32,000 nucleotides of DNA, from assembly GCA_031316235.1 (NCBI GenBank), contig JALDRA010000001.1, positions 1,020,001 to 1,052,000 on the forward strand, in the 5' to 3' direction. The position numbers and the translations under genes are program-made. Source of the stretch: Candidatus Scalindua sp. (GTDB lineage Bacteria; Planctomycetota; Brocadiia; Brocadiales; Scalinduaceae). A model generated the notes under the pieces. It made no database searches. It saw nothing but the letters and a program-made list of their open reading frames with translations, and was not told the origin of the DNA. Positions 1-31,878 of this stretch are shown in pieces; the stretch's first letter is position 1, and the number at the start of each line of letters is the position of its first letter.

Positions 1-563
1 AGGCAGACGTGGCAGATTTTGAAGCAGCAAAGAATATGGTGACTGAAGTTAAGGAAGAATTCGGGCAGATTGATTTTTTGATCAACAATGCCGGTGTGAC
101 CAGGGACAAGCTCCTGGCATTAATGAAAGAGAGCGACTGGGATGATGTGATCAACACCAACCTGAAAAGTGTCTACAACTTTTCCAAGGCAGTAATTATG
201 ACCATGGTCAAACAGAAGAGCGGGAGCATACTCAACATTACGTCAGTAAGTGGAATTGCCGGAGTGGCGGGACAGACTAACTACTCCGCATCAAAGGCTG
301 GCGTCATCGGCTTTACTAAGGCCCTGGCCAAGGAAGTTGGAAAGGCAAAAATAAATGTAAATGCTATTGCGTGTGGATTCATTGAGACCGATATGACAGC
401 TTCACTCCCGGAAGAGTATAAGAATAAGATGATAGATATGACGTCTCTCAAACGATTTGGGAACCCTGAAGAGATAGCCAGGATTGCTTCATTCATGCTC
501 TCAGAAGACGCAAAATATATTACCGGACATGTTCTCACCGTTGATGGTGGATTGGCATTATAA
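1..563 (+). CDS. fabG: 3-oxoacyl-[acyl-carrier-protein] reductase (SDR family), 5' end cut by window edge
   Basis: The frame is open from nt 3, and the listed start at 9 is an internal GTG. SDR/FabG hallmarks are present: INNAGVTRD, catalytic S...YSASK (NYSASKAG) and C-terminal ITGHVLTVDGG. Stop TAA at 561-563. Confidence 0.85.
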   Translation, partial: ADVADFEAAKNMVTEVKEEFGQIDFLINNAGVTRDKLLALMKESDWDDVINTNLKSVYNFSKAVIMTMVKQKSGSILNITSVSGIAGVAGQTNYSASKAGVIGFTKALAKEVGKAKINVNAIACGFIETDMTASLPEEYKNKMIDMTSLKRFGNPEEIARIASFMLSEDAKYITGHVLTVDGGLAL

Positions 564-589
564 ATCTGTTCCTTTAACCCGCAGTAATG

Positions 590-696
590 AAACAGTCTGG
601 CTGGTTGCTGGTATCACCGGACAAAAAAACGCCGAGGACTTTACCTGCTCCGTTTTTTGCCGGATTTTACCCGAAATCCAGTATGAGATGAGTATA
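590..696 (+). repeat. Copy A of the ~140-bp structured intergenic repeat family (5' arm missing)
   Basis: It shares CTGGTTGCTGGTATC-CCGGACAAAAAAC-CCGAGGACTTTAC...CGGATTTTACCCGAAATCCAGTATGAGATGAGTATA with copies at 3663, 6314, 7426 and 31261. It starts about 25 nt after the fabG stop. Confidence 0.8.
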
Positions 697-802
697 ATTA
701 GAGAAAATTGTTCATGGTTCAGATGTACCGGTCTCTGTAATACGTGACTTCCAATCTCATCAGCCTGGTACATCTGGTAAAAATAAAAGGAGCGAATCTA
801 GA

Positions 803-1114
803 ATGATTTTTTTATTAAAGGTACAAATAAAAAAAATACCAGATGTCCCCGTTAAAGATTTTCTGGGCATCGTGGTCAAGGAGTGGGAATATTTCTTGAG
901 GATGAAGAGAAGGGGCAAGATCCTTGCCGGTGGTAAATTGGCCGGTGGAAGAGGGGCCGCCGCCATTATTGAGGCTGACTCTAATGAGGAGCTGGACCAG
1001 ATCGTTGCAAACCTGCCGCTTTTTCCTTTTTTTACCGATATTGAAATCACCCCCCTGGTTTCTACGGAAAAAGCCCTGACCGACGTTAAACGGGTTCATT
1101 CGCTCATGAAGTGA
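803..1114 (+). CDS. Muconolactone delta-isomerase-like small protein
   Basis: 103 aa, with AAGGAG 9 nt upstream of the ATG. The N-terminal MIFLLKVQIKKIP and the C-terminal LPLFPFFTDIEITPL follow the MLFxVKMxV...LPLFPYMDIEV pattern I remember for muconolactone isomerase. Confidence 0.65.
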   Translation: MIFLLKVQIKKIPDVPVKDFLGIVVKEWEYFLRMKRRGKILAGGKLAGGRGAAAIIEADSNEELDQIVANLPLFPFFTDIEITPLVSTEKALTDVKRVHSLMK

Positions 1115-1529
1115 ATATTATACTGAAGCTGATTATCAACAGAGAGAACACAGAGAGATGCGAAAAAACAGGCATGATGGTTCGAGCCATTTATCCATAG
1201 ATCAAGTTTGATCCAGATAACAATAATTTATATTATTAGTGACGCACTTGTCCTTTGTTGGTATACTGGTAAACAGTAATTGATGTGATGTGATCTTTTC
1301 CCATGGGTTACTCCGCAAGGGAATCTTTATGAGTCGGTTTATCAGTATGATTGTAAGATATCATGAACTTGCTCTGAGTGGGGAATCGGGCACTAGCACA
1401 CGTGACCTGCACATGGTGTGGCACGTGAAATAAAGAATAAGCCGACAGTCGGCTTTCGCTATCTAAAAATTTGTGTGCTTGGTTTTCTATAGCGTAATCT
1501 CAATCAACACTCATAAAAAAGGAAGATGA

Positions 1530-1802
1530 ATGAATATTTATGTGGGAAACCTGCCATACAGCGTAACTGAAGCCGATTTGAAAGAGACGTTTTCAGCGTT
1601 TGGTGAAGTAGCGAGTGCGTCTCTTGTCAGTGACAAGTTTTCAGGGCAATCCAAAGGTTTTGGGTTTGTTGAAATGCCAAACAACTCGGAAGCAGACGCT
1701 GCGATCAAGGCTCTGAATGAAAGCGACTTGCAAGGAAGAAATATCAAGGTAAATCAGGCTAAACCAAAAGGTGATAGCCCCCAGCGCAGGCCAAGATATT
1801 AA
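1530..1802 (+). CDS. RRM-type RNA-binding protein
   Basis: 90 aa with RNP-2 IYVGNL and RNP-1 KGFGFVEM. AAGGAAG lies upstream of the ATG. It is preceded by a roughly 400-nt gene-free, hairpin-rich leader. Confidence 0.9.
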   Translation: MNIYVGNLPYSVTEADLKETFSAFGEVASASLVSDKFSGQSKGFGFVEMPNNSEADAAIKALNESDLQGRNIKVNQAKPKGDSPQRRPRY

Positions 1803-2298
1803 AAGCTTATAATACAATGCACCGGAAGCCAATGATCACTGTTCGCTTTAGCCACAATTTTTTTATCCTCCGATGGGCTGCTAACACCGGTAGAAAGTGA
1901 AGAGACGTTGAATGTGGGGTGCAAGAGCTGGTTACACAGACTCGCAACATAGAAAATTGAATGACGTGAGAAACCCCTCATGAGAGGCTCCAGCTTTCAG
2001 CTCTCCCCCGATGATTTGAGGAGAGCTGAAAGGCTGAGGAGTTTCATGATTTACCGAAGAGAATCTTTCAAAGATCCGTATTTGCCGGGGATTACCGAGG
2101 CTTTGCTCAGTTCCTTTTGAGCAAAAGTTTCCGGGGCGATTTCTGGTCAAACGCGCCACTTCAGCCAGCCAATTGACACCATGTATGGTGGGTCAACCGG
2201 GACTTGGATGACCTTCGAATTTTTATGCTCACCGATGACCCGGTTCTGAAAAACAGACTCAAACAACCGGCTTACTTTTATGAATAGGATTAAAATAT

Positions 2299-3630
2299 AT
2301 GAAAACCTTTGCCAAACTTGGCTTATCTGAAAATGTTCTACGTGCCGTTAAGGATAAAGGCTACCAGGCACCTTCTCCCATTCAGGAACTCGCCATTCCT
2401 GCCATACTGACCGGCAACGATATACTGGCTGCGGCACAGACGGGTACGGGTAAAACAGCAGGTTTCACTCTACCGATGGTACAGATCCTTGATCAGGCAG
2501 TATCGACAAGAAACCATCCGATCCGGGCACTTGTTTTGACACCGACCCGGGAGCTGGCGGCGCAGGTCCAGGACAGCATAAAGACTTACGGCAAATACCT
2601 GAAACTCAAAAGCATGGTTGTTTTTGGTGGCGTGAATATCAAACCGCAGATTGATCAACTGAAAAAAGGTGTGGATATTCTGGTTGCCACACCTGGCAGA
2701 TTACTGGATCTCTGTAACCAGCGGGCATGCAGATTGAACGAGGTCAACATCCTTGTCCTCGATGAAGCAGACCGTATGCTGGACATGGGTTTTATTCATG
2801 ACATCCGCAGGATTATCAAACTTTTACCACCAAAACGTCAAAATCTACTGTTTTCAGCCACATTTTCAAAGGAAATTCGCACCTTGACACACGAATTTCT
2901 TGTCAAACCAATAACGATTGAAGTTACCCCTGAAAAAACTGCGGCACAGACCGTCTCCCAAAGAGCTTATCGATGTGATGCCAAGGCAAAGACCCGCCTT
3001 GCAATCCATCTGATTAAAGAAGGCAAATGGGAACAGGTGTTGATTTTCACACGAACCAAACATGGTGCCAATCGCCTGTGCAGTAAATTTTCAGAGGCAG
3101 GTATTCAATCAAGTACCATTCATGGCAACAAGACTCAGACCGCTCGCATCAAGGCTCTGGAGGATTTAAAAAGACGCAAGATTCGTGTACTTGTGGCTAC
3201 CGATATTGCCGCACGTGGTCTGGATATAGTCCAGTTACCGCATGTTGTCAATTATGAATTATCCAATGTTCCCGAAGATTATGTCCACCGCATTGGCAGG
3301 ACTGGTCGTGCCGGCATGGAAGGAGAGGCCATCTCCCTGGTTTGCAATGACGAACGCCCTTTTCTACGCAGTATCGAAAAACTTATTGGTCATTCGATTG
3401 ATCTATCGGATGTACCCGGCTTTGAGCCTTCCATCTGGCCAAAAAAAGCCCCCTCTGCAGGCGAAGTACAGAAAGCCGCTGCTGTACGTAAAGAAGCCGC
3501 GCGCCTGACACGTGGACCTCGCAGGCAACCTGCCTCAGCGAGAACTTCAACCAGAGAGCGAAATTCTGCGGGCAATAAACCCGGCAGGAGGCTCAATCAA
3601 AAAAGGAAACTTTCCGGCGAGAAAGGCTGA
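2299..3630 (+). CDS. rhlE: DEAD-box ATP-dependent RNA helicase (RhlE-like) with basic C-terminal tail
   Basis: 443 aa with Q-motif region GYQAPSPIQ, motif I AQTGTGKT, motif [13 protein letters not shown], and motif [12 protein letters not shown]. The C-terminus is Arg/Lys-rich. Confidence 0.95.
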
Positions 3631-3662
3631 ACCACCCCACTGACCCTGTGATGTTTTGAATA

Positions 3663-3802
3663 TATACTGAAACCGCTTTGGTTTTTGATTTTTCTAAAAA
3701 CCAAAGCCTGGTTGCTGGTATCCCCTGACAAAAAACACCGAGGACTTTACTCTCTAAGTTTTTTCTTGGATTTTATCCGAAAACCATTATAAGATACGTA
3801 TA
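3663..3802 (+). repeat. Copy B of the structured intergenic repeat family (full length)
   Basis: TATAC...GTATA ends. Hairpin 1 is GCTTTGGTTTTT/AAAAACCAAAGC, followed by the central CCGAGGACTTTAC box and hairpin 2 TTGGAT-TTT-ATCCGA. It lies 32 nt after the helicase stop. Confidence 0.85.
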
Positions 3803-3897
3803 GAATCATTTTGAAGCCTTAAAGCCTTTTTTTTAAATGATCCGTCAAGGCCTCCAGATAACAATCCGCACCAGAAACAGGCAGAAAACAACACGAT

Positions 3898-4176
3898 ATG
3901 ATAGCCGAGAAAAAACAGAAAAAGAGATCACTTCTCAAAATAGGATTCATGCTGGTTTTAGTCAGCTATATGCTCTGGGCCCCAACGTTTTTGTTTGTTG
4001 TAATGTCCTTTTCCGGCAAAGCCTGGCTGTGGTGCCTTCTCGCAACCGTATCATACACCTTAAGCTGGATCTTGTTGGTCGCAGGTTTCCTGCTGGCCGG
4101 ACCCGATGCCGCACGGTCAGGCCGTCGTTGGATTGCCAGGCTTCTCGGACAAAAAACCATATCAAAGCCAATCTAG
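3898..4176 (+). CDS. Hypothetical small membrane protein
   Basis: 92 aa with a basic N-terminus (KKQKKR) followed by two to three hydrophobic helices. There is no clear SD, and it overlaps an alternative-frame ORF (3837-4205) that looks non-protein-like. Confidence 0.4.
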   Translation: MIAEKKQKKRSLLKIGFMLVLVSYMLWAPTFLFVVMSFSGKAWLWCLLATVSYTLSWILLVAGFLLAGPDAARSGRRWIARLLGQKTISKPI

Positions 4177-4229
4177 ACGCCCCACAAAGGGATGGGAAAG
4201 AATAAAGAAACAGAAAATATCTCTGGAGT

Positions 4230-4396
4230 CAGTAGTGTCCGGTTAGGAATTTGCACGTGCGGCTTTTGTCATACCCGAGTGCTTTTATCGGGTATACAGA
4301 GAGTCTCATTCATCCTGGATTCCCGCTAAAAACATGCGGGAATGACATCTTTTGAACAATAAATTAAATACGCAAAAACCTAACCGGACACTACTG
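4230..4396. mobile_element. Non-autonomous MITE, 167 bp, perfect 18-bp terminal inverted repeats, 9-bp target-site duplication
   Basis: The left TIR CAGTAGTGTCCGGTTAGG (4230-4247) is the exact reverse complement of the right TIR CCTAACCGGACACTACTG (4379-4396). It is flanked by the identical direct repeat CTCTGGAGT at 4221-4229 and 4397-4405. No ORF. Internal hairpins are ATACCCGA-N9-TCGGGTAT and ATTCCCGC-N9-GCGGGAAT. Confidence 0.85.
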
Positions 4397-4452
4397 CTCT
4401 GGAGTAAGAGTATAAAGTGAAGTAAACAAGACAGCGTTACGTATAAGCATTA

Positions 4453-4563
4453 TATACTAAAATCGATTTGGTTTTCGGTTTTCTGGAAACCAAATCATGG
4501 TGAAGGTATACTCGCTCCATTTTATCTCGAATTTTATTCGAAAACCATTATGAGATGAGTATA
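4453..4563 (+). repeat. Copy C of the structured repeat family (central ~30 bp deleted)
   Basis: TATACTAAAATCGATTTGGTTTTCGGTTTTCTGGAAACCAAATC...TCGAATTTTATTCGAAAACCATTATGAGATGAGTATA. It lacks the CCCCGGACAAAAAAC-CCGAGGACTTTA core. Confidence 0.8.
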
Positions 4564-4686
4564 CGATGAACATATATTGAAGGAATATGAAAATTAGTTT
4601 TAGCTTTTTTATGCAATGTTACTCATAGAACCCACTACCAGTCTGCCACCGTCCGGTTGTTTTCTATAATCAGCGTTTTATCTGTA

Positions 4687-5160
4687 TTAATGCTGCAGCT
4701 TATTATCCCAATCTTGTTTATCTTCCCCGTCCGCCCCTGCCACCACTATATCCCCCTTTACCACCACCATATCCCCTTTTTTGCTGCCGCTGTATCCACC
4801 CTTGCCTCCACCACCACCATATCCCCCTTTGCCGCCACTGTATCCACCCTTACCTCCTCCTCCGCCATATCCCCCTTTACCGCCGCTGAATCCTCCGGTA
4901 CCACCTCCAAAATTTCCGGTGCGAGGACGAGCTTCATTCACGTTAAGCGATCTACCCTTTAATTCCTTACCATTCAATCCATCAATTGCTGCCTGTCCCT
5001 CAGCTTTTGCTGGCATCTCGACGAATGCAAACCCTTTAGGCTGACCACTAAATTTGTCTTTTATGATATTGACGGATTCAACCTTGCCAAAAGCTTCACA
5101 AGCAAGCCGCAAATCCTCTTCGGTAGTCTCGTAAGACAAATTTCCCACATAAATATTCAT
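4687..5160 (-). CDS. Glycine-rich RRM RNA-binding protein (C-terminal tail probably frame-shifted)
   Basis: RNP-2 IYVGNL and RNP-1 KGFAFVEM, then GGKGGYGGGGGKGGYSG repeats. After the A6G4 run (4773-4782 on the plus strand) the frame gives an atypical tail, GDMVVVKGDIVV.... The +1 frame continues GGYGGGKGGYSGGRGGRGR and stops at 4718-4720. Confidence 0.9.
   Translation of the reverse strand: MNIYVGNLSYETTEEDLRLACEAFGKVESVNIIKDKFSGQPKGFAFVEMPAKAEGQAAIDGLNGKELKGRSLNVNEARPRTGNFGGGTGGFSGGKGGYGGGGGKGGYSGGKGGYGGGGGKGGYSGSKKGDMVVVKGDIVVAGADGEDKQDWDNKLQH
4790..4885. repeat. 2 x 48-bp tandem repeat inside the Gly-rich tail coding region
   Basis: CTGTATCCACCCTTGCCTCCACCACCACCATATCCCCCTTTGCCGCCA is followed by a near-identical unit. 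Each unit encodes a GGKGGYGGGGGKGGYS block on the minus strand. Confidence 0.8.
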
Positions 5161-5778
5161 TCTGTATTCCTTTCTAATAATTAAGTTGCAATTAAACTGA
5201 CATTATACTTTCATGTCTCCTAACAGCTCTCTTTCCAAGCTATTGTATTCTCAAATATCTTAGAGATGTTAACCGGAAATATGTTTGATTCAATTTTATT
5301 TCTTGAGATGAGAAGCAGTAATTATACACCGTGATTCCGCTGTTGTTAATAATCTTTCAACAATAGGTATTGTAAGATCTCTTTTCATACCAAACTCTTC
5401 CGGGTTTTCTTGTACAAGATTCAAATAGATTAATACAAATGCCTCCATGGCATCAATACCCTTTACCAGGGTGGGATCTGCCTGCTAACAGGTTTGAAAG
5501 GACTTGAACCGGCCTTTTCTCTCCCTGTTTTCATCCGTATAAAGTTCAATAACCGTATAAATGCCTTTTACACACTTTAATAAAACTCCCAGCAGCTCTC
5601 TGTTTATTTTTAATTCTGGCTATTGCTGGCTGATCATCCGCAGGTATTTTCAGCTGCTGCTGCATATGCCTGCCTGGTATCGGTCGTAAACAGTGACAAG
5701 AGAGAGCCTGTCGGAGTGATCGCAAAGACGAGTGCAATAAGAGTGACATAAATTGTTTTCTTTATTCTCTGCATATAT

Positions 5779-5821
5779 AAAAAAGCCCCCGATACCCTTT
5801 CATGGATATTGGGGGGCTTTT
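5779..5821 (-). terminator. Rho-independent terminator downstream of the csp gene
   Basis: The minus-strand RNA forms AAGCCCCCCAATA...TATCGGGGGCTT followed by TTTTTT. It lies about 110 nt after the csp stop. Confidence 0.7.
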
Positions 5822-5931
5822 ACGTTATCATTACAATAATATTTTACAACTACTCCATATTAATTATGATATACAACTCTCTTTCGATAGATTATACAGG
5901 ATAAAATATATGAGTATGCTTTACAATATAT

Positions 5932-6132
5932 TTATATTTTGACAACATTTGAGGCCTTACTGCCCTTTTGGCCCTGTTCGACTTCAAACTCCACCCGGTC
6001 ACCTTCTGAAAGGCTTTTAAAACCATCAGACTGGATTGCGGTATGGTGAACAAAGACATCTTCTCCATTCTCCGGAGTAATAAAACCAAACCCCTTTGAG
6101 TCGCTAAACCACTTTACTGTTCCATTCTGCAT
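5932..6132 (-). CDS. csp: Cold-shock protein, CspA family
   Basis: 66 aa with [15 protein letters not shown] (RNP-1-like) and VFVHHTAI (RNP-2-like). AAGGGGGT lies 10 nt upstream of the ATG. Confidence 0.95.
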
Positions 6133-6161
6133 ACTGAAAATTACCCCCTTTACATAGTAAT

Positions 6162-6206
6162 AATAAAATAAAAAGAGGCTACAAGCTTGGAAACCTTGTA
6201 GCCTCT
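6162..6206 (-). promoter_or_regulatory. Terminator-like hairpin in the csp upstream/leader region
   Basis: A perfect 12-bp stem, AGAGGCTACAAG (6174-6185) / CTTGTAGCCTCT (6195-6206). On the minus strand it is followed by TTTTTATTTTATT. It lies only about 30-70 nt upstream of the csp ATG. Confidence 0.4.
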
Positions 6207-6313
6207 ATATAAGTATATATCAAACGATACAACTACCAACATAGTCAAAGATTATCACACATGAATCATTAATGCAAGAGAAAATAATATTTTGTCAAGC
6301 AAAAAGAGAAATG

Positions 6314-6425
6314 TATACTCACCTCATAATGGTTTTCGGATGAAATCCGAGAAAAAACGGAGCGAGTAAAGTCCTCGGTGCCTTTTGTCCGGGGATACCT
6401 GCAACCAAGATTTGGTTTTAGTATA
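6314..6425 (-). repeat. Copy D of the structured repeat family (hairpin 1 deleted)
   Basis: The reverse complement reads TATACTAAAACCAAATCTTGGTTGCAGGTATCCCCGGACAAAAGGCACCGAGGACTTTACTCGCTC...CTCGGATTTCATCCGAAAACCATTATGAGGTGAGTATA. Confidence 0.8.
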
Positions 6426-6527
6426 CAAGAATTATTTCACATACTATAAGATTCAGAGTAATACCTAAATTTATTCCCCTCATCTTTTGAATTTAACAAT
6501 TTACAAAATAATAATAAATGGTACTAT

Positions 6528-7004
6528 TTGCACATCAAACGGAATTTCGACTATAAAATAGGAATTATTTCTGATACTCATGGCCTTATCCGCCAACCTA
6601 TTGTGCAATTATTCGCAGACGTTGACTTAATAATACATGCTGGCGACATAGGAAACCCAATGGTGCTTGAAACTTTGCAAACCATTGCTAAAGTTTATGC
6701 CGTCCGTGGGAATGTTGACGTTGGTGAATTGGCTGCAAATTTACCGAAAACCGATCTGGTAAAAGTAGGTGAGTTCTTTTTTTATGTTCTTCACGATATC
6801 AATGAACTCAATCTGGATCCCGCTGCAGCAGGATTACATGGCGTTATTAGCGGTCATTCGCACAGAGCTAAGATCGAAAAAAGAGATGGTGTTCTCTTTC
6901 TCAACCCAGGAAGCGCGGGTCCCAAACGTTTTCAGCTTCCTGCTACTCTTGCATTTATATATGTGAAGGGCGTTACTCTAGATGCTGAGGTTATTGAGAT
7001 TTAG
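6528..7004 (+). CDS. Metallophosphoesterase, YfcE/MJ0936-like
   Basis: 158 aa with the calcineurin-like motif series IGIISDTHG, HAGDIG, VRGNVD, SGHSH and LNPGS. The only in-frame start before the first motif is TTG at 6528, so the start is uncertain. Confidence 0.85.
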   Translation: MHIKRNFDYKIGIISDTHGLIRQPIVQLFADVDLIIHAGDIGNPMVLETLQTIAKVYAVRGNVDVGELAANLPKTDLVKVGEFFFYVLHDINELNLDPAAAGLHGVISGHSHRAKIEKRDGVLFLNPGSAGPKRFQLPATLAFIYVKGVTLDAEVIEI

Positions 7005-7018
7005 GAGATAAACCAGGA

Positions 7019-7357
7019 TTATGCTTCTGAATCCACGTTTGAGGTGCCACCTATCGCAAAAAAAGGGAGAAGAGCAGCTTTTTGTTCCTCTTTAACGGCA
7101 TTTATCAACTCTTTCATGCCATAAATGCTCTTTAACTCTTCTATGATCTCTTCCGTAATCATTTTTTCTTCATAATAACCATGCATACCAAATGCAAGAG
7201 CATGTGCAATACATCTTGCACATTCACACGTACCAATTGTATAAAATGAGAATTGCTTAAAAGATCCAGTACCATGAGTCTCTTTGGAATAATGGCTATT
7301 GAAGTAACCATCGTCAGGCATGTGATGCAGTTTATCGACAATGTCTTTGTATTTCAT
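7019..7357 (-). CDS. Hypothetical protein
   Basis: 112 aa with a strong SD (GGGGAAGGAAGA) directly upstream of the ATG. The composition is protein-like. I recognise no motif. Confidence 0.55.
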   Translation of the reverse strand: MKYKDIVDKLHHMPDDGYFNSHYSKETHGTGSFKQFSFYTIGTCECARCIAHALAFGMHGYYEEKMITEEIIEELKSIYGMKELINAVKEEQKAALLPFFAIGGTSNVDSEA

Positions 7358-7425
7358 TCTTCCTTCCCCTGAGAGTAACTACGCTATAAAACTGTTTGCT
7401 TTGTTTTAACAGGATTGTAACGTTT

Positions 7426-7562
7426 TATACTCATCTTACAATGGTTTTCGGATAAAATCCGAGATAAAATTGAGTGAGTAAAGTCCTCGGTGCCTGGTCC
7501 GGGGATACCTTCACCAAGATTTGGTTGCCGGTAAAACCGAAAACCAAATCGGTTTTAGTATA
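7426..7562 (-). repeat. Copy E of the structured repeat family (full length)
   Basis: The reverse complement reads TATACTAAAACCGATTTGGTTTTCGGTTTTACCGGCAACCAAATCTTGGTGAAGGTATCCCCGGACCAGGCACCGAGGACTTTACTCACTCAATTTTATCTCGGATTTTATCCGAAAACCATTGTAAGATGAGTATA. The listed ORF 7474-7692 is just its translation. Confidence 0.85.
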
Positions 7563-7838
7563 TAAAAGCCCTGATCATTTTAAGAAAATCAGACATGCCA
7601 TCCCACTGATGCTTTTAAGAAATATGCTGCTTATAACCTTAGAGATATGTATACGTACTGAGGGAGTAGCAAAGATATCGATAACCAGATAAGTATGGAC
7701 GTGCAAACCGCAGTTACTGAATACTAACATATTGAAACCATTGCTGCAATGCTATATTTGCTCTTTCAAGAAATTAAAAATAGAGGACTCTTTGGTGTAT
7801 TGCCTGTGCAGACAATGTCAAGACCTTCAGTTAACAAT

Positions 7839-11586: not shown

Positions 11587-11944
11587 TAACAACCCTCCCC
11601 TTTTTTTCGTGTTGGTTTTAAGTATCAACAATATAATAAGCTCGTTGTTACCACTGTAATAATGATAACCCGAAATCAATAAAAAAACATATCAGCTTGG
11701 TCCATCGAGGTAAATTTATTCTACCCGTTCCAATGAGAGACTCTCTCAAAATTGTCAGGTTTTCGACCCGCATGCGATATTCAGGCGGAAAGGCACGAGT
11801 GGCAGGCAGTCACTGATTGACCGGGTAACGGTATCCAGCTTGTCACTTAACCCTATTTTTTGAACCTGTCCTCCCGGAAGACTCCGCTGGGACGGGTCCG
11901 ACTATTCCGTTCAGGTGGCTACGCAGACACACAAATAAAGACGG

Positions 11945-12001
11945 TACACTAAAACCAATTTCGTTTTAGATTTTTCTCAAAACCATTATAAACGGAACAT
12001 A
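11945..12001 (+). repeat. Copy F of the structured repeat family (miniature, ~57 bp)
   Basis: TACACTAAAACCAATTTCGTTTT...CTCAAAACCATTATAAACGGAACATA retains only the two terminal segments of the family. Confidence 0.55.
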
Positions 12002-29774: not shown

Positions 29775-31238
29775 TTATGTGCCAAGATTTATCCAGACAC
29801 TTTTCACCTGTGTATACAACTCGAGCGAATGCATCCCCAATTCTCTACCAAAACCACTCTGCTTGTATCCACCAAAGGGTGAAGCAGCATCAAACATATT
29901 ATACGTATTCACCCATATGGTACCGGCCTTTAACTCTCTTGCAAGTCTGTGAGCTTTGCTTATATCTCGAGTCCATACTGCTGCAGCCAAACCATAAGGA
30001 GATGCATTGCCCTGCTGTACCACCTCATCCATATCATCAAAGGTTATAGCAGACACAACGGGACCAAAGATCTCTTCTTTTGCAATCTTCATGGTGTTAT
30101 CTACCTCATCAAATATTGTAGGCTTAACGAAATACCCTGTCTTACCACACCTTTCGCCACCTGCTACAACCTTCGCGCCCTCTTTTTTCCCACTTTCAAT
30201 ATAGTGTAAGATCTTCTCAAATTGCTCTTTTGATACCTGTGCACCCATTTGAGTATCAGGGTCTTCCGGATCTCCAACACATAAACGGTTAGCCCTGTCA
30301 GTCAACTTTTCCAAAAATTCGTCATGAATCTTCTTCTCAAGGAACAAGCGAGAACCGGCGCAACACACCTCCCCCTGATTAAAAAAGATACCAGTCATAG
30401 CACCATTCACTGCGCTGTCAATATCAGAATCTGCAAACACGATATTAGGAGATTTCCCTCCCAGCTCCAACGATATACGTTTTAAATTACCCGCTGCAGC
30501 CTTCATGACAAGACGCCCTGTTGTATGTTCCCCCGTAAAGGCAACCTTGTCAACATCCATATGTTCAGCGAGTGCCGCCCCTGCTGTCGGACCGTAACCA
30601 GGGACAATATTCAGCACCCCATCCGGCAAACCCGCTTCCTGGCAAATTTCACCAAGCTTTAATGCCGACAATGGTGTCTGTTCCGCAGGTTTCAGGACAA
30701 TCGTATTACCACAGGCTATTGCAGGTGCAATCTTCCATACCGCCATTAATAACGGAAAATTCCATGGTATTATCTGCCCAACAACCCCCACCGGCTCCCT
30801 GATAGTATAGTTAAAAAACTCTCCTCTTACGGGAATAGTTTCACCATGAATCTTGTCTGCCCACCCTGCATAATAGAGCAAGCAGTCAATTGCGAGTGGA
30901 AGATCTACGTTTGTTGTTTCACTTATCGGCTTCCCATTATCCAAGGTGTCTAACCAGGCGAGCTCATCTCTGTTTTTCTCAACCAGTTCCATTATCTTCA
31001 ATAACATCAAGCCCCTGTCCCGAGCATCAATCTTTCGCCATGGCCCATTTTCAAATGCTTTGCGAGCAGCTGCCACGGCAAGGTCTATATCCTCCTTATC
31101 TCCCTCCGCTACCGTCGTAATCTCCTCTTCAGTTGCTGGATTTATGGTACGAAAAAGTTTTCCTGAAACAGAATCAACCCATTTTCCGCCTATCAGCAAC
31201 TTTTTCGATTTTATCTCTCTTTCCTTTTTTTTAATCAT
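29775..31238 (-). CDS. NAD(P)-dependent aldehyde dehydrogenase
   Basis: Motifs [11 protein letters not shown], catalytic [13 protein letters not shown], and EEIFGPV. The start is corrected to ATG 31238, with GGAG 8 nt upstream. The 30 extra N-terminal codons of the listed ORF are a translation of repeat copy G. Confidence 0.9.
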
Positions 31239-31260
31239 ACTGACAGCTCCATTTCCCTTG

Positions 31261-31401
31261 TATACTAAAATCGATCTGGTTTTCGGTTTTACCGGAAACC
31301 AGATCCTGGTGAAGGTATCCCCGGACAAAAAACTCTGAGGACTTTACTCGCTCAAATTTATCTCGGATTTTAACCGAAATCCAGTATGAGATGAGTTTAT
31401 A
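31261..31401 (+). repeat. Copy G of the structured repeat family (full length)
   Basis: TATACTAAAATCGATCTGGTTTTCGGTTTTACCGGAAACCAGATCCTGGTGAAGGTATCCCCGGACAAAAAACTCTGAGGACTTTACTCGCTCAAATTTATCTCGGATTTTAACCGAAATCCAGTATGAGATGAGTTTATA. It sits 7 nt from the greA stop. Confidence 0.85.
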
Positions 31402-31407
31402 CAATAT

Positions 31408-31878
31408 TCAATATTCAATCTTTAATACTTTATAACGCAACTTCCCCATAGGAACATCAACTTCCAGGACTTCATCTATTTTTCCTCCCAGTAATGCTTT
31501 TGCTACGGGAGAACTCACCAGAATTTTTCCGTTCTTTGGGTCATCATCACCTGCCCCGACCAATTGATAGTTTTCAATATCACCCGTCTCCAGGTCTTCA
31601 AGCTCAACTTTTGCTCCAAAACAGATTGTATCTTTGGGAATTTTGGAAGAATCTACAATCTCCGCTCTTGCAAGATCATCCTCAAGCTTTCGAATTTTTG
31701 CCTCAAGTAATCCTTGTGCTTCCCTTGCGGCATCATATTCTGCATTTTCACGAAGATCTCCATGTGCCCTCGCTTTTCCAATTGCAGACTGAACTTCCAT
31801 CCTTTTTTCAGTCTTTAAATAATCCAATTCTTTTTTCAGTTTCTCATAACTATCTTGTACCATATATACCTTTTCCAC
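31408..31878 (-). CDS. greA: Transcription elongation factor GreA
   Basis: 156 aa with an N-terminal coiled coil carrying HGDLRENAEYDAAREAQ, then a C-terminal globular domain. The start is GTG with GGAG 6 nt upstream. Confidence 0.9.
   Translation of the reverse strand: MEKVYMVQDSYEKLKKELDYLKTEKRMEVQSAIGKARAHGDLRENAEYDAAREAQGLLEAKIRKLEDDLARAEIVDSSKIPKDTICFGAKVELEDLETGDIENYQLVGAGDDDPKNGKILVSSPVAKALLGGKIDEVLEVDVPMGKLRYKVLKIEY

Follow-up and report, generated by a model that had tools for sequence, protein, structure and literature searches.

Short intergenic repeats were analysed in a 32,000-nucleotide stretch of genomic DNA from Candidatus Scalindua sp. (contig JALDRA010000001.1, positions 1,020,001 to 1,052,000; the whole stretch is called the window). 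A first-pass annotation of this DNA had reported seven copies of a family with two hairpins that starts with TATAC and ends with GTATA. Our analysis indicates, with a probability of roughly 0.85, that the family is a non-autonomous transposable element of the miniature inverted-repeat class (MITE), of the IS630/Tc1-mariner type, which is moved in trans. The copies stay below the MITE size limit of about 300 bp and are non-coding, they carry terminal inverted repeats (TIRs), filled and empty sites show that a TA is duplicated, and many dispersed copies with insertion polymorphism were found. The IS630 type is seen in the TA target with its 2-bp duplication and in ends that are similar to those of an IS630-family insertion sequence (IS) of the host.

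Both ends of the repeat form a 26-nt imperfect TIR, TATACT-N10-TGGTTTTCGG, counted with the flanking TA. The 5' end has the sequence TATACTAAAAYCGATYTGGTTTTCGG; the 3' end, when reverse-complemented, is TATACTCAYCTYAYAATGGTTTTCGG. The two share TATACT, ten variable positions and then TGGTTTTCGG at equal offset. This nature of the ends had gone unremarked in the first-pass annotation. When the merged 26-nt pattern TATACTNANNYYRNWNTGGTTTTCGG was searched with up to two mismatches, ten ends in inverted orientation were found in the window, with 0.00 expected from shuffles. Outside TATAC...GTATA the flanks had no direct repeat in common. A TA was present on both sides in 83 of the 89 collected copies, and no longer direct repeat was observed.

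The first-pass annotation had left room for a duplication of the TA target. Empty sites were sought by joining the left and right flanks of each copy and searching for uninterrupted versions (loci outside the window are designated by L numbers). Two copies, L017:7587-7698 and L028:6937-7049, sit within another repeat family of about 150 nt. Nine uninterrupted copies of this host repeat read '...cgcgccttg TA cctgggcag...', whereas the filled sites in L017 and L028 read '...ccttg TA[TAC...GTG]TA cctggg...'. Orthologous sites between species also differed: L051 was filled and L087 empty ('...ttctctga TA tct...'), and in a second pair L090 was filled and L055 empty. These sites show that insertion duplicates the TA target. 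The element proper is therefore TAC...GTA, and the outer TA on each side is not part of it. In L003, the right flank of one copy opens with a further end-like sequence, TATACTCATC, and one TA is common to both. For the window's own copies, exact empty sites were not obtainable from the related block L026 of Ca. Scalindua sp. SCAELEC01, whose spacers have diverged too far or whose synteny with the window stops at copy D; the duplication is thus established on family members at other loci. The host repeat itself, TAGTGTTTGAACGAAAACTACCCATC...GGGTTTTCGTTCACGCACTA, is a SCAELEC01 family with inverted ends and was seen at L003 (~250-480), L109 (~4400-4600), L067 (two), L043, L042, L102, L107 and L019.

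The first-pass annotation had named an IS630-style mobile unit as an option if TA were the target, and the ends of IS630-family elements in the same genomes agree with it. In the Scalinduaceae locus L119, an open reading frame (ORF) fragment ('...YSPNLNLIERLW...') stops inside CCTAAAACCATTTCGTAATGAGTATA, and the same end opens the SCAELEC01 contig L019. Relatives of this ORF carry the Pfam domain DDE_3 (PF13358) and the source name 'IS630 family transposase'. The right end of the IS, CCTAAAACCATTTCGTAATGAGTATA, shares 21 of 26 positions with the 3' end of the MITE and 19 of 26 with its 5' end. IS630-family elements of about 1.12 kb in the same genomes have the ends TATAC...GGTTTTAGG. Complete copies were found in L123 (2475-3597, 1123 bp) and L127. 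They consist of orfA with helix-turn-helix domains and orfB with the DDE domain, separated by an A-AAA-AAG slippery site, between the left end TATACCAGTCACGAAAAATAATTAGG and the right end ...CCTAAAACCATTTCGATATGGGTATA.

The ends were then compared across 80 metagenomic relatives of the transposase, which were 40-82% identical in amino acid sequence. GTATA was found just past the ORF in 57 of the 68 assessable loci. Complete elements with TATAC(C/T) at both ends were present at 46 loci; they measured 1.10-1.16 kb, except for one of 0.82 kb and one of 1.39 kb. Many of these ISs have GGTTTT(A/C)GG at positions 18-26, for example L205 (TATACTAAAGTGAATTAGGTTTTCGG, 21/26). As judged from these sequences, TATAC(C/T)...GGTTTT(A/C)GG is a clade-wide IS end signature.

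TA is the sole insertion target of IS630/Tc1-mariner elements, which duplicate it and require nothing beyond their transposase (PMC2170065), and RUP with IS630-Spn1 is a bacterial precedent for a MITE of this kind (PMC2229807). From the established biochemistry of this family we propose that the DDE transposase of an IS630/Tc1-mariner-family IS resident in the same genomes acts on the repeat in trans; this is presumably the enzyme that moves the copies. Its helix-turn-helix domain would bind the 26-nt inverted repeats, and the element would be excised by double-strand breaks. The 3' ends would then be joined to staggered positions at a TA dinucleotide, and gap repair would duplicate the TA.

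Several points weigh against this reading. The window itself contains no transposase gene. At its left end, the Scalindua-type IS has no more than 13 of 26 positions in common with the MITE 5' end, and both MITE ends are nearer to the right end of the IS than to its left end. A transposase with shared termini, for which the first-pass annotation had suggested to look, was found only to the extent of similar ends: among 7 loci and 80 metagenome loci no parent IS with identical ends was detected, the best agreement being 21 of 26. The family is probably not a simple deletion derivative of the IS, and its mobilisation by an IS630 transposase is a proposal. Finally, the enriched compensatory change in the hairpin stems (see below) leaves room for a selected hairpin function that a MITE model alone does not predict. 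An IS630-family copy with the ends TATACTAAAACCGATTTGG... and ...CCGAAAACCATTATGAGATGAGTATA would be the parent.

Two longer regions, each bounded by a distant pair of lone ends, were considered as autonomous or cargo-carrying elements and were rejected. L119 1291-3608, with a 620-aa regulator-like ORF inside, is in fact made of two separate copies, one with a 1-nt TIR deletion and the other truncated against another repeat. In L058 474-3736 (Saprospiraceae) there is no transposase; the two ORFs within it look ordinary. Ends of the type TATACCCATCAC were also examined as transposase flanks; none flanks one. They mark a second MITE family, which is IS630-like and has the ends TATACCCATYRCRAAWTGGTTTT(A/T/C)GG (L073:2295-2476). 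Lone ends of this second family were observed in L016, L028, L061, L077, L089, L095, L109 and L114. The ends of the second family appear nearer to the right end of the Scalindua IS630 element than those of the family studied here (L073, about 23/26 counted by eye).

Elements of 100-520 bp with the ends TATACTSAARCCRAARTGGTTTTCGG were found in several other phyla, with no transposase in the blocks examined. They occur in Caldithrix (L006, L008, L009, L045, L071, L111, L118), Saprospiraceae (L015, L058, L069, L076, L078, L094, L116), Leptospiraceae (L018, L065, L093, L115), Melioribacteraceae (L031, L057, L099, L105) and at further loci (L027, L029, L034, L037, L088). MITE-like families thus seem to have arisen repeatedly from the same IS630-clade end signature, and the signature TATAC...GGTTTTNGG recurs in such elements of several other phyla.

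The ends also bear on the other mobile units that had been named. A hairpin-recognised single-strand element, either a REP/REPIN moved by a REP-associated tyrosine transposase (RAYT) or an IS200/IS605 palindrome-associated transposable element (PATE) moved by a Y1 transposase, would account for two subterminal hairpins with compensatory changes, for the asymmetry between the left and right hairpin sequences, and for the GC-rich palindromic modules that lie in hairpin loops and in other repeat families. We regard it as very improbable. The ends of the repeat are inverted repeats of each other across 26 nt and match the termini of IS630 elements, which are of the DDE type, and TA is duplicated on insertion. 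No Y1 transposase or RAYT turned up, although neither was searched for systematically. To our knowledge, IS200/IS605 elements and REPINs have neither TIRs nor a target duplication. REPs and REPINs are short palindromes of 20-40 nt that are associated with a RAYT gene, and IS200/IS605 PATEs insert 3' of a fixed tetra- or pentanucleotide; the 26-nt TIRs together with the TA duplication contradict both.

The distribution of the MITE was determined with a pattern scan that covered one genome per species and was counted in eight-kb blocks. The end pattern was present in at least 119 blocks across the genomes scanned. At least 41 blocks came from Ca. Scalindua sp. SCAELEC01, at least 36 from Scalindua sp. 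RBC_AMX3, at least 13 from a Scalinduaceae metagenome-assembled genome (MAG) and at least one from a Planctomycetota MAG. At least 28 blocks with variant ends came from other phyla (Caldithrix, Saprospiraceae, Leptospiraceae, Melioribacteraceae and others). In at least three Ca. Scalindua/Scalinduaceae genomes the repeat occurs in abundance, in line with the earlier expectation of a very abundant family. A covariance model gave 120 matches in 748 kb of Scalindua DNA; across the loci analysed, nhmmer gave 140 matches and pattern matching gave 278 ends with 98 end pairs that span 57-237 bp.

Insertion polymorphism was observed between related genomes, as the first-pass annotation had proposed to check. 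Window positions 1-6310 are 82-89% identical to L026, and the window thus represents a Scalindua species other than SCAELEC01. The segment 3628-4718 with copies B and C is absent from L026, which has 28 nt instead (5627-5655). For copies A and D no counterpart was detected at the corresponding L026 positions, and L026 carries its own copy at a site that is empty in the window. Within one genome, identical copies were found at different loci (L003/L043 and L040/L092). The family is presumably still active, and it explains why species differ in the presence or absence of sequence within regions that are syntenic otherwise. With seven copies in 32 kb it is also dense enough to matter for the annotation and assembly of anammox genomes. 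The Logan contigs L001 and L002, which carry the window's helicase gene, stop 86 nt past its stop codon inside copy B, where the abundant repeat disrupts short-read assembly.

The anatomy of the MITE was read from 89 oriented Scalindua copies. They range from 57 to 237 nt with the flanking TA, corresponding to 53-233 nt for the element proper, and are built from modules. No ORF is conserved among the copies, and the module lengths vary by non-multiples of 3. The minimal form of 57 nt consists of the 5' TIR, TTTTA and the 3' TIR (L003:2557-2613). A 91-nt form has in addition a GC-rich hairpin of 34 nt in the loop. The commonest class, of 111-113 nt, lacks the core and accounts for 30 of the 89 copies, including copy C of the window. 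The forms of 131-141 nt add a block of 27 nt, CCCCGGACAAAAGGCGCCGAGGACTTT, between GGTAT and ACTCG; two such blocks stand in tandem in L120 and L051. In the longest forms, of 142-237 nt, TTTTAC is followed at once by added GC-rich modules, which lie in the loop of hairpin 1, of hairpin 2 or of both. From the 57-nt palindrome through the back-to-back palindromes and the 27-nt core to the GC-rich loop inserts, the family is a convenient case for following the growth of a MITE.

In hairpin 1, the inner half of the 5' TIR pairs with an inverted and diverged copy of the same TIR; hairpin 2 is likewise formed by the 3' TIR and its own diverged inverted copy. Since each TIR is followed by its own inverted copy, the 113-mer represents two back-to-back TIR-loop-TIR palindromes that meet at GGTATAC. 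RNA folding reproduced these palindromes, and both strands folded equally well. The GC-rich modules CCTGTCTGCGTGC...GCACAGGCAGG and CCGTCCGAACGGCTGACAGGCCGGGCGGGC are always placed immediately behind TTTTAC, in the loop of hairpin 1 or of hairpin 2; unrelated Scalindua repeat families contain them as well. The hairpin-1 module CCTGTCCGAATGGCTGGTAGGCCGGGCGGGC is common to an unrelated longer repeat, GGGCCCAGGAAAGAATAACTTGTTGTTCTCG... (family Z: L016, L019, L033, L077, L080). On the reverse strand of L019, at about 1506, a chimera of the family Z repeat and the MITE has its junction at the GC-rich module. The CCTGTCTGCGTGC...GCACAGGCAGG module was seen outside the family in L114 (5301) and L030. 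The presence of the modules in other families and the L019 chimera make an exchange of modules by recombination likely.

The first-pass annotation had also reported compensatory base changes in both hairpins and had concluded that the structure is under selection. The quoted changes are present. In 50 simple copies 93.7% of the stem cells pair, and double changes were observed in only 6 cells at 4 pairs, with three of the four double-change events contributed by the window's own copies. A larger alignment of 120 copies was made with the covariance model; it was fitted to the structure, and its pair counts are the measures rated robust by the test. Double-sided changes were found at 11 of the 20 stem pairs. 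The alignment contained 19 double-change cells, compared with 3.6±1.8 in shuffles, and 35 further pair types, compared with 23.8; neither value was reached in any of 500 shuffles. Slid controls had 3-7 pairs with a double change. The compensatory change in the stems is thus real and significant.

The covariation raises the question whether the hairpins function in RNA. The repeat could be a structured RNA element in the manner of Correia or REP sequences in 3' untranslated regions, with hairpins selected for transcript termination, stability or processing and with mobility as a secondary property. The distance past a stop codon is 7-33 nt for copies A, B and G, the copies fold far better than shuffles (z -4 to -8), and MITE transcripts from insertions downstream of genes can have a part in regulating mRNA (Delihas review, PMC2229807). 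The family-wide data do not favour such a role. In tandem intergenic spacers, the element was oriented with the genes in 20 cases and against them in 21. Tandem, divergent and convergent spacers held 41, 16 and 12 copies, where the intergenic length predicts about 39, 18 and 12, so that there is no preference for gene 3' ends; both the orientation and the spacer counts used crude gene calls, taken as the longest ORFs from an ATG with a minimum of 110 aa. G.U mismatches were as frequent as A.C mismatches (62 and 54 in the 120 copies, p=0.52; 24 and 19 in a smaller set). The arm of hairpin 1 that is not TIR was as variable as the unpaired spacer (10.1% and 10.7% non-consensus); the TIR conservation values in this comparison are biased by the way the copies were collected. 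Terminator-like stems followed by a T-run were found at 7 sites within 400-7800, none of them in a copy, and Rfam at gathering thresholds gave no match on either strand of the whole window. The lack of strand asymmetry, orientation bias, 3'-end preference and terminator features argues against an RNA or terminator role, which we consider improbable. Of the earlier conclusion, the compensation stands, whereas no strand-specific sign of an RNA was seen.

We infer that the palindromy is kept at the level of the DNA. This could come about by weak selection that is tied to transposition, or by template-switch correction of imperfect palindromes. According to the latter explanation, the covariation is a mutational by-product of intra-strand template switching in an otherwise ordinary MITE, with no selection at all; we take this as a serious possibility, somewhat short of an even chance. 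The compensation is strand-symmetric, and modules and arms have probably been swapped between repeat families, as in the chimera of L019. At pair 14/44 a mismatched intermediate persists (A.G in L064, L067, L109, L013 and L022), and a restored C-G is found in copy B of the window and in L021. One change, A14>C, falls within the TIR, which is conserved otherwise, and makes it match its internal partner. Sequence alone cannot distinguish this process from a weak selective pressure that keeps the DNA palindromic, such as one from a transposase that binds inverted sites, and the template switching would follow the mechanism of quasipalindrome mutagenesis.

It is unlikely, though somewhat less so than an RNA role, that the family is more than a plain MITE. 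In that case its GC-rich modules might be units that move or recombine on their own and home to the MITE hairpin loops, or the stem compensation might reflect a selected function at the DNA level. Such a function could lie in paired inverted transposase-binding sites or in a cruciform that transposition by this IS630 clade needs. If true, the GC-rich modules would be a parasite of a parasite.

The IS630-type MITE was compared with known systems. RUP of Streptococcus pneumoniae is similar in being non-coding and intergenic, with about 107 bp and about 100 copies, in having TIRs that resemble an IS630-family element of the same genome, and in inserting at TA with duplication (PMC2229807). RUP also inserts into other mobile elements (PMC2229807), as do the two copies that sit within another repeat family here. 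The two families differ in sequence, with no similarity, and in the host, which is an anammox planctomycete (phylum Planctomycetota) in the case of Scalindua. The Scalindua TIRs have 26 nt, compared with 9 contiguous base pairs listed for RUP, and each has its pairing partner in an internal inverted copy of itself, in place of a single long stem. The Scalindua body is strongly modular.

The Correia elements of Neisseria (NEMIS, CREE) have TA-flanked TATA ends, inverted repeats of about 24-26 bp and a TA duplication, a very high copy number and mostly intergenic positions (PMC2229807). They also fall into size classes by an internal block, 107 and 155 bp, compared with 113 and 139 bp in Scalindua (PMC2229807). 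They differ in that they have IHF sites, promoters, RNase III targets and documented effects on transcripts, in the host phylum, and in that a candidate transposase family is identified for the Scalindua repeat. The Correia inverted repeat reads TATAG(C/T)GGATTAA... and is not known to be related to the Scalindua repeat beyond TATA. We treat Correia/NEMIS as an analogue and not as the family to which the repeat belongs, and the suggested Correia- or REP-like role at transcript ends was not borne out by the orientation and spacer data above.

IS630 elements and ISY100 use TA exclusively, duplicate these 2 bp, have imperfect TIRs that are bound by an N-terminal helix-turn-helix, and move by cut-and-paste with the DDE transposase alone (PMC2170065). 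The Scalindua repeats encode nothing and are about ten times shorter than the ISs of the Scalindua clade. Stowaway-type MITEs belong to eukaryotic hosts and are unrelated in sequence. They share the TA duplication, the short inverted repeats and the high copy number, and they are cross-mobilised by a related, non-identical Tc1/mariner transposase.

Literature searches for a MITE of Scalindua or of anammox bacteria brought up no description of the repeat, and a 2024 review of prokaryotic MITEs contained nothing that matched IS630, Planctomyc, TA dinucleotide, mariner or hairpin. As the first-pass annotation had supposed, the family is apparently undescribed; it is of a well-known MITE kind and does not belong to the RUP sequence family, nor probably to that of Correia. 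It represents no new RNA class and no new mechanism. It provides a clear bacterial IS630-type MITE beyond the usual pathogens, with filled and empty sites and a candidate transposase clade.

The copies in the window were recovered with a covariance model (R1) built from 50 family members. Run over the whole window with the filters off, R1 returned exactly the seven elements that had been annotated before and no others (Table 1). The weak residue consisted of reverse-strand echoes of the seven copies or had E values of at least 0.96. A repeat search linked 611-696, 3660-3802, 4450-4563, 6314-6419, 7426-7565, 11942-11991 and 31258-31399 in direct and inverted families, and a seven-way alignment gave one family once all copies were turned to a common orientation. 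A tRNA scan of the window found no tRNA gene.

Table 1. Copies of the MITE in the window. E values are those of the covariance model.
Copy	Position	Strand	Form	E value and match bounds	Further features	Gene context
A	590-696	+	5' end truncated/degenerate; core module, hairpin 2 and 3' TIR retained	1e-7 (583-696; nhmmer 602-696)	3' TIR 671-696, 1 mismatch to TIR pattern	starts 27 nt past stop of SDR/FabG-like ORF (9-563)
B	3663-3802	+	full, 140 nt with the two flanking TA, core present	9e-23	subfamily with AGATTTTTCTAA apical loop	starts 33 nt past stop of DEAD-box helicase gene (2299-3630)
C	4453-4563	+	111 nt, core-less form	1e-27		
D	6314-6425	-	core present	8e-15	28-nt deletion between two AAACC direct repeats; inner 5' TIR and hairpin-1 loop gone	
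E	7426-7562	-	full, 137 nt, core present	1e-26	5' TIR 7537-7562 and 3' TIR 7426-7451, both exact to TIR pattern; fold of three back-to-back hairpins, z -4.2 (other strand -4.8)	
F	11945-12001	+	degenerate 57-nt minimal form: 5' TIR, TTTTT loop, 3' TIR	0.0068 (filters off, exactly 11945-12001)	39/57 positions equal to the 57-nt element L003:2557-2613, counted by eye	
G	31261-31399	+	full, 139 nt, core present	7e-25	fold z -5.9; T>C/A>G compensation in hairpin 1; variant 3' TIR AAATCCAG	ends 9 nt before GreA stop codon 31408-31410 (greA 31408-31878, minus strand)

The TATAC...GTATA ends, the intergenic positions near the fabG, helicase and greA stop codons and the core GGTATCCCCGGAC-N-CCGAGGACTTTAC in copies A, B, D, E and G are as described earlier. 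The right bound of copy G may be 31399 and not 31401, and its distance from the GreA stop is accordingly 7-9 nt. Several copies had been taken for deletion derivatives. This fits copy D with its deletion between direct repeats and does not fit copy C, which has the commonest form of the family. Copy F, the earlier 'mini version', is a degenerate copy of a minimal form that exists elsewhere.

As mechanically listed, an aldehyde dehydrogenase ORF (29775-31328, minus strand) begins at a TTG inside copy G. Its Pfam domain starts at residue 50, so that the true start is probably downstream and copy G intergenic. Promoter-like matches were observed at 3640-3668, 6292-6319 and 4484-4512 (9-10 of 12 positions), whose -10 hexamer is a TATACT from the end or the interior of the element. 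Overall, promoter-like sites were modestly above shuffles (26 compared with 16.8±3.8).

Another, distinct MITE-like element lies between copies B and C at 4221-4405. It has 25-nt TIRs (CAGTAGTGTCCGGTTAGGAATTTGC) at 4230-4254 and 4372-4396 that are 92% complementary, and a perfect direct repeat of 9 bp, CTCTGGAGT, flanks it (4221-4229 and 4397-4405). The perfect repeat suggests a recent insertion by a transposase that duplicates 9 bp. L026 contains a relative with 65% identity at 2783-2993, downstream of fabG, in the place that copy A takes in the window. The 1.09-kb spacer 3628-4718, between the convergent helicase and RRM genes, contains copy B, a 92-aa ORF (3898-4176) with no Pfam match, the element with the 9-bp duplication and copy C. 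With this content, and with only 28 nt in its place in SCAELEC01, the whole spacer looks like accumulated mobile DNA. The adjoining RRM-domain gene (4687-5160, minus strand) encodes a glycine-rich C-terminal tail that derives from imperfect tandem repeats of 21, 27 and 48 nt (4733-4914). A second RRM gene is located at 1530-1802, and the 5' ends of the two RRM genes share an inverted match of 53 nt.

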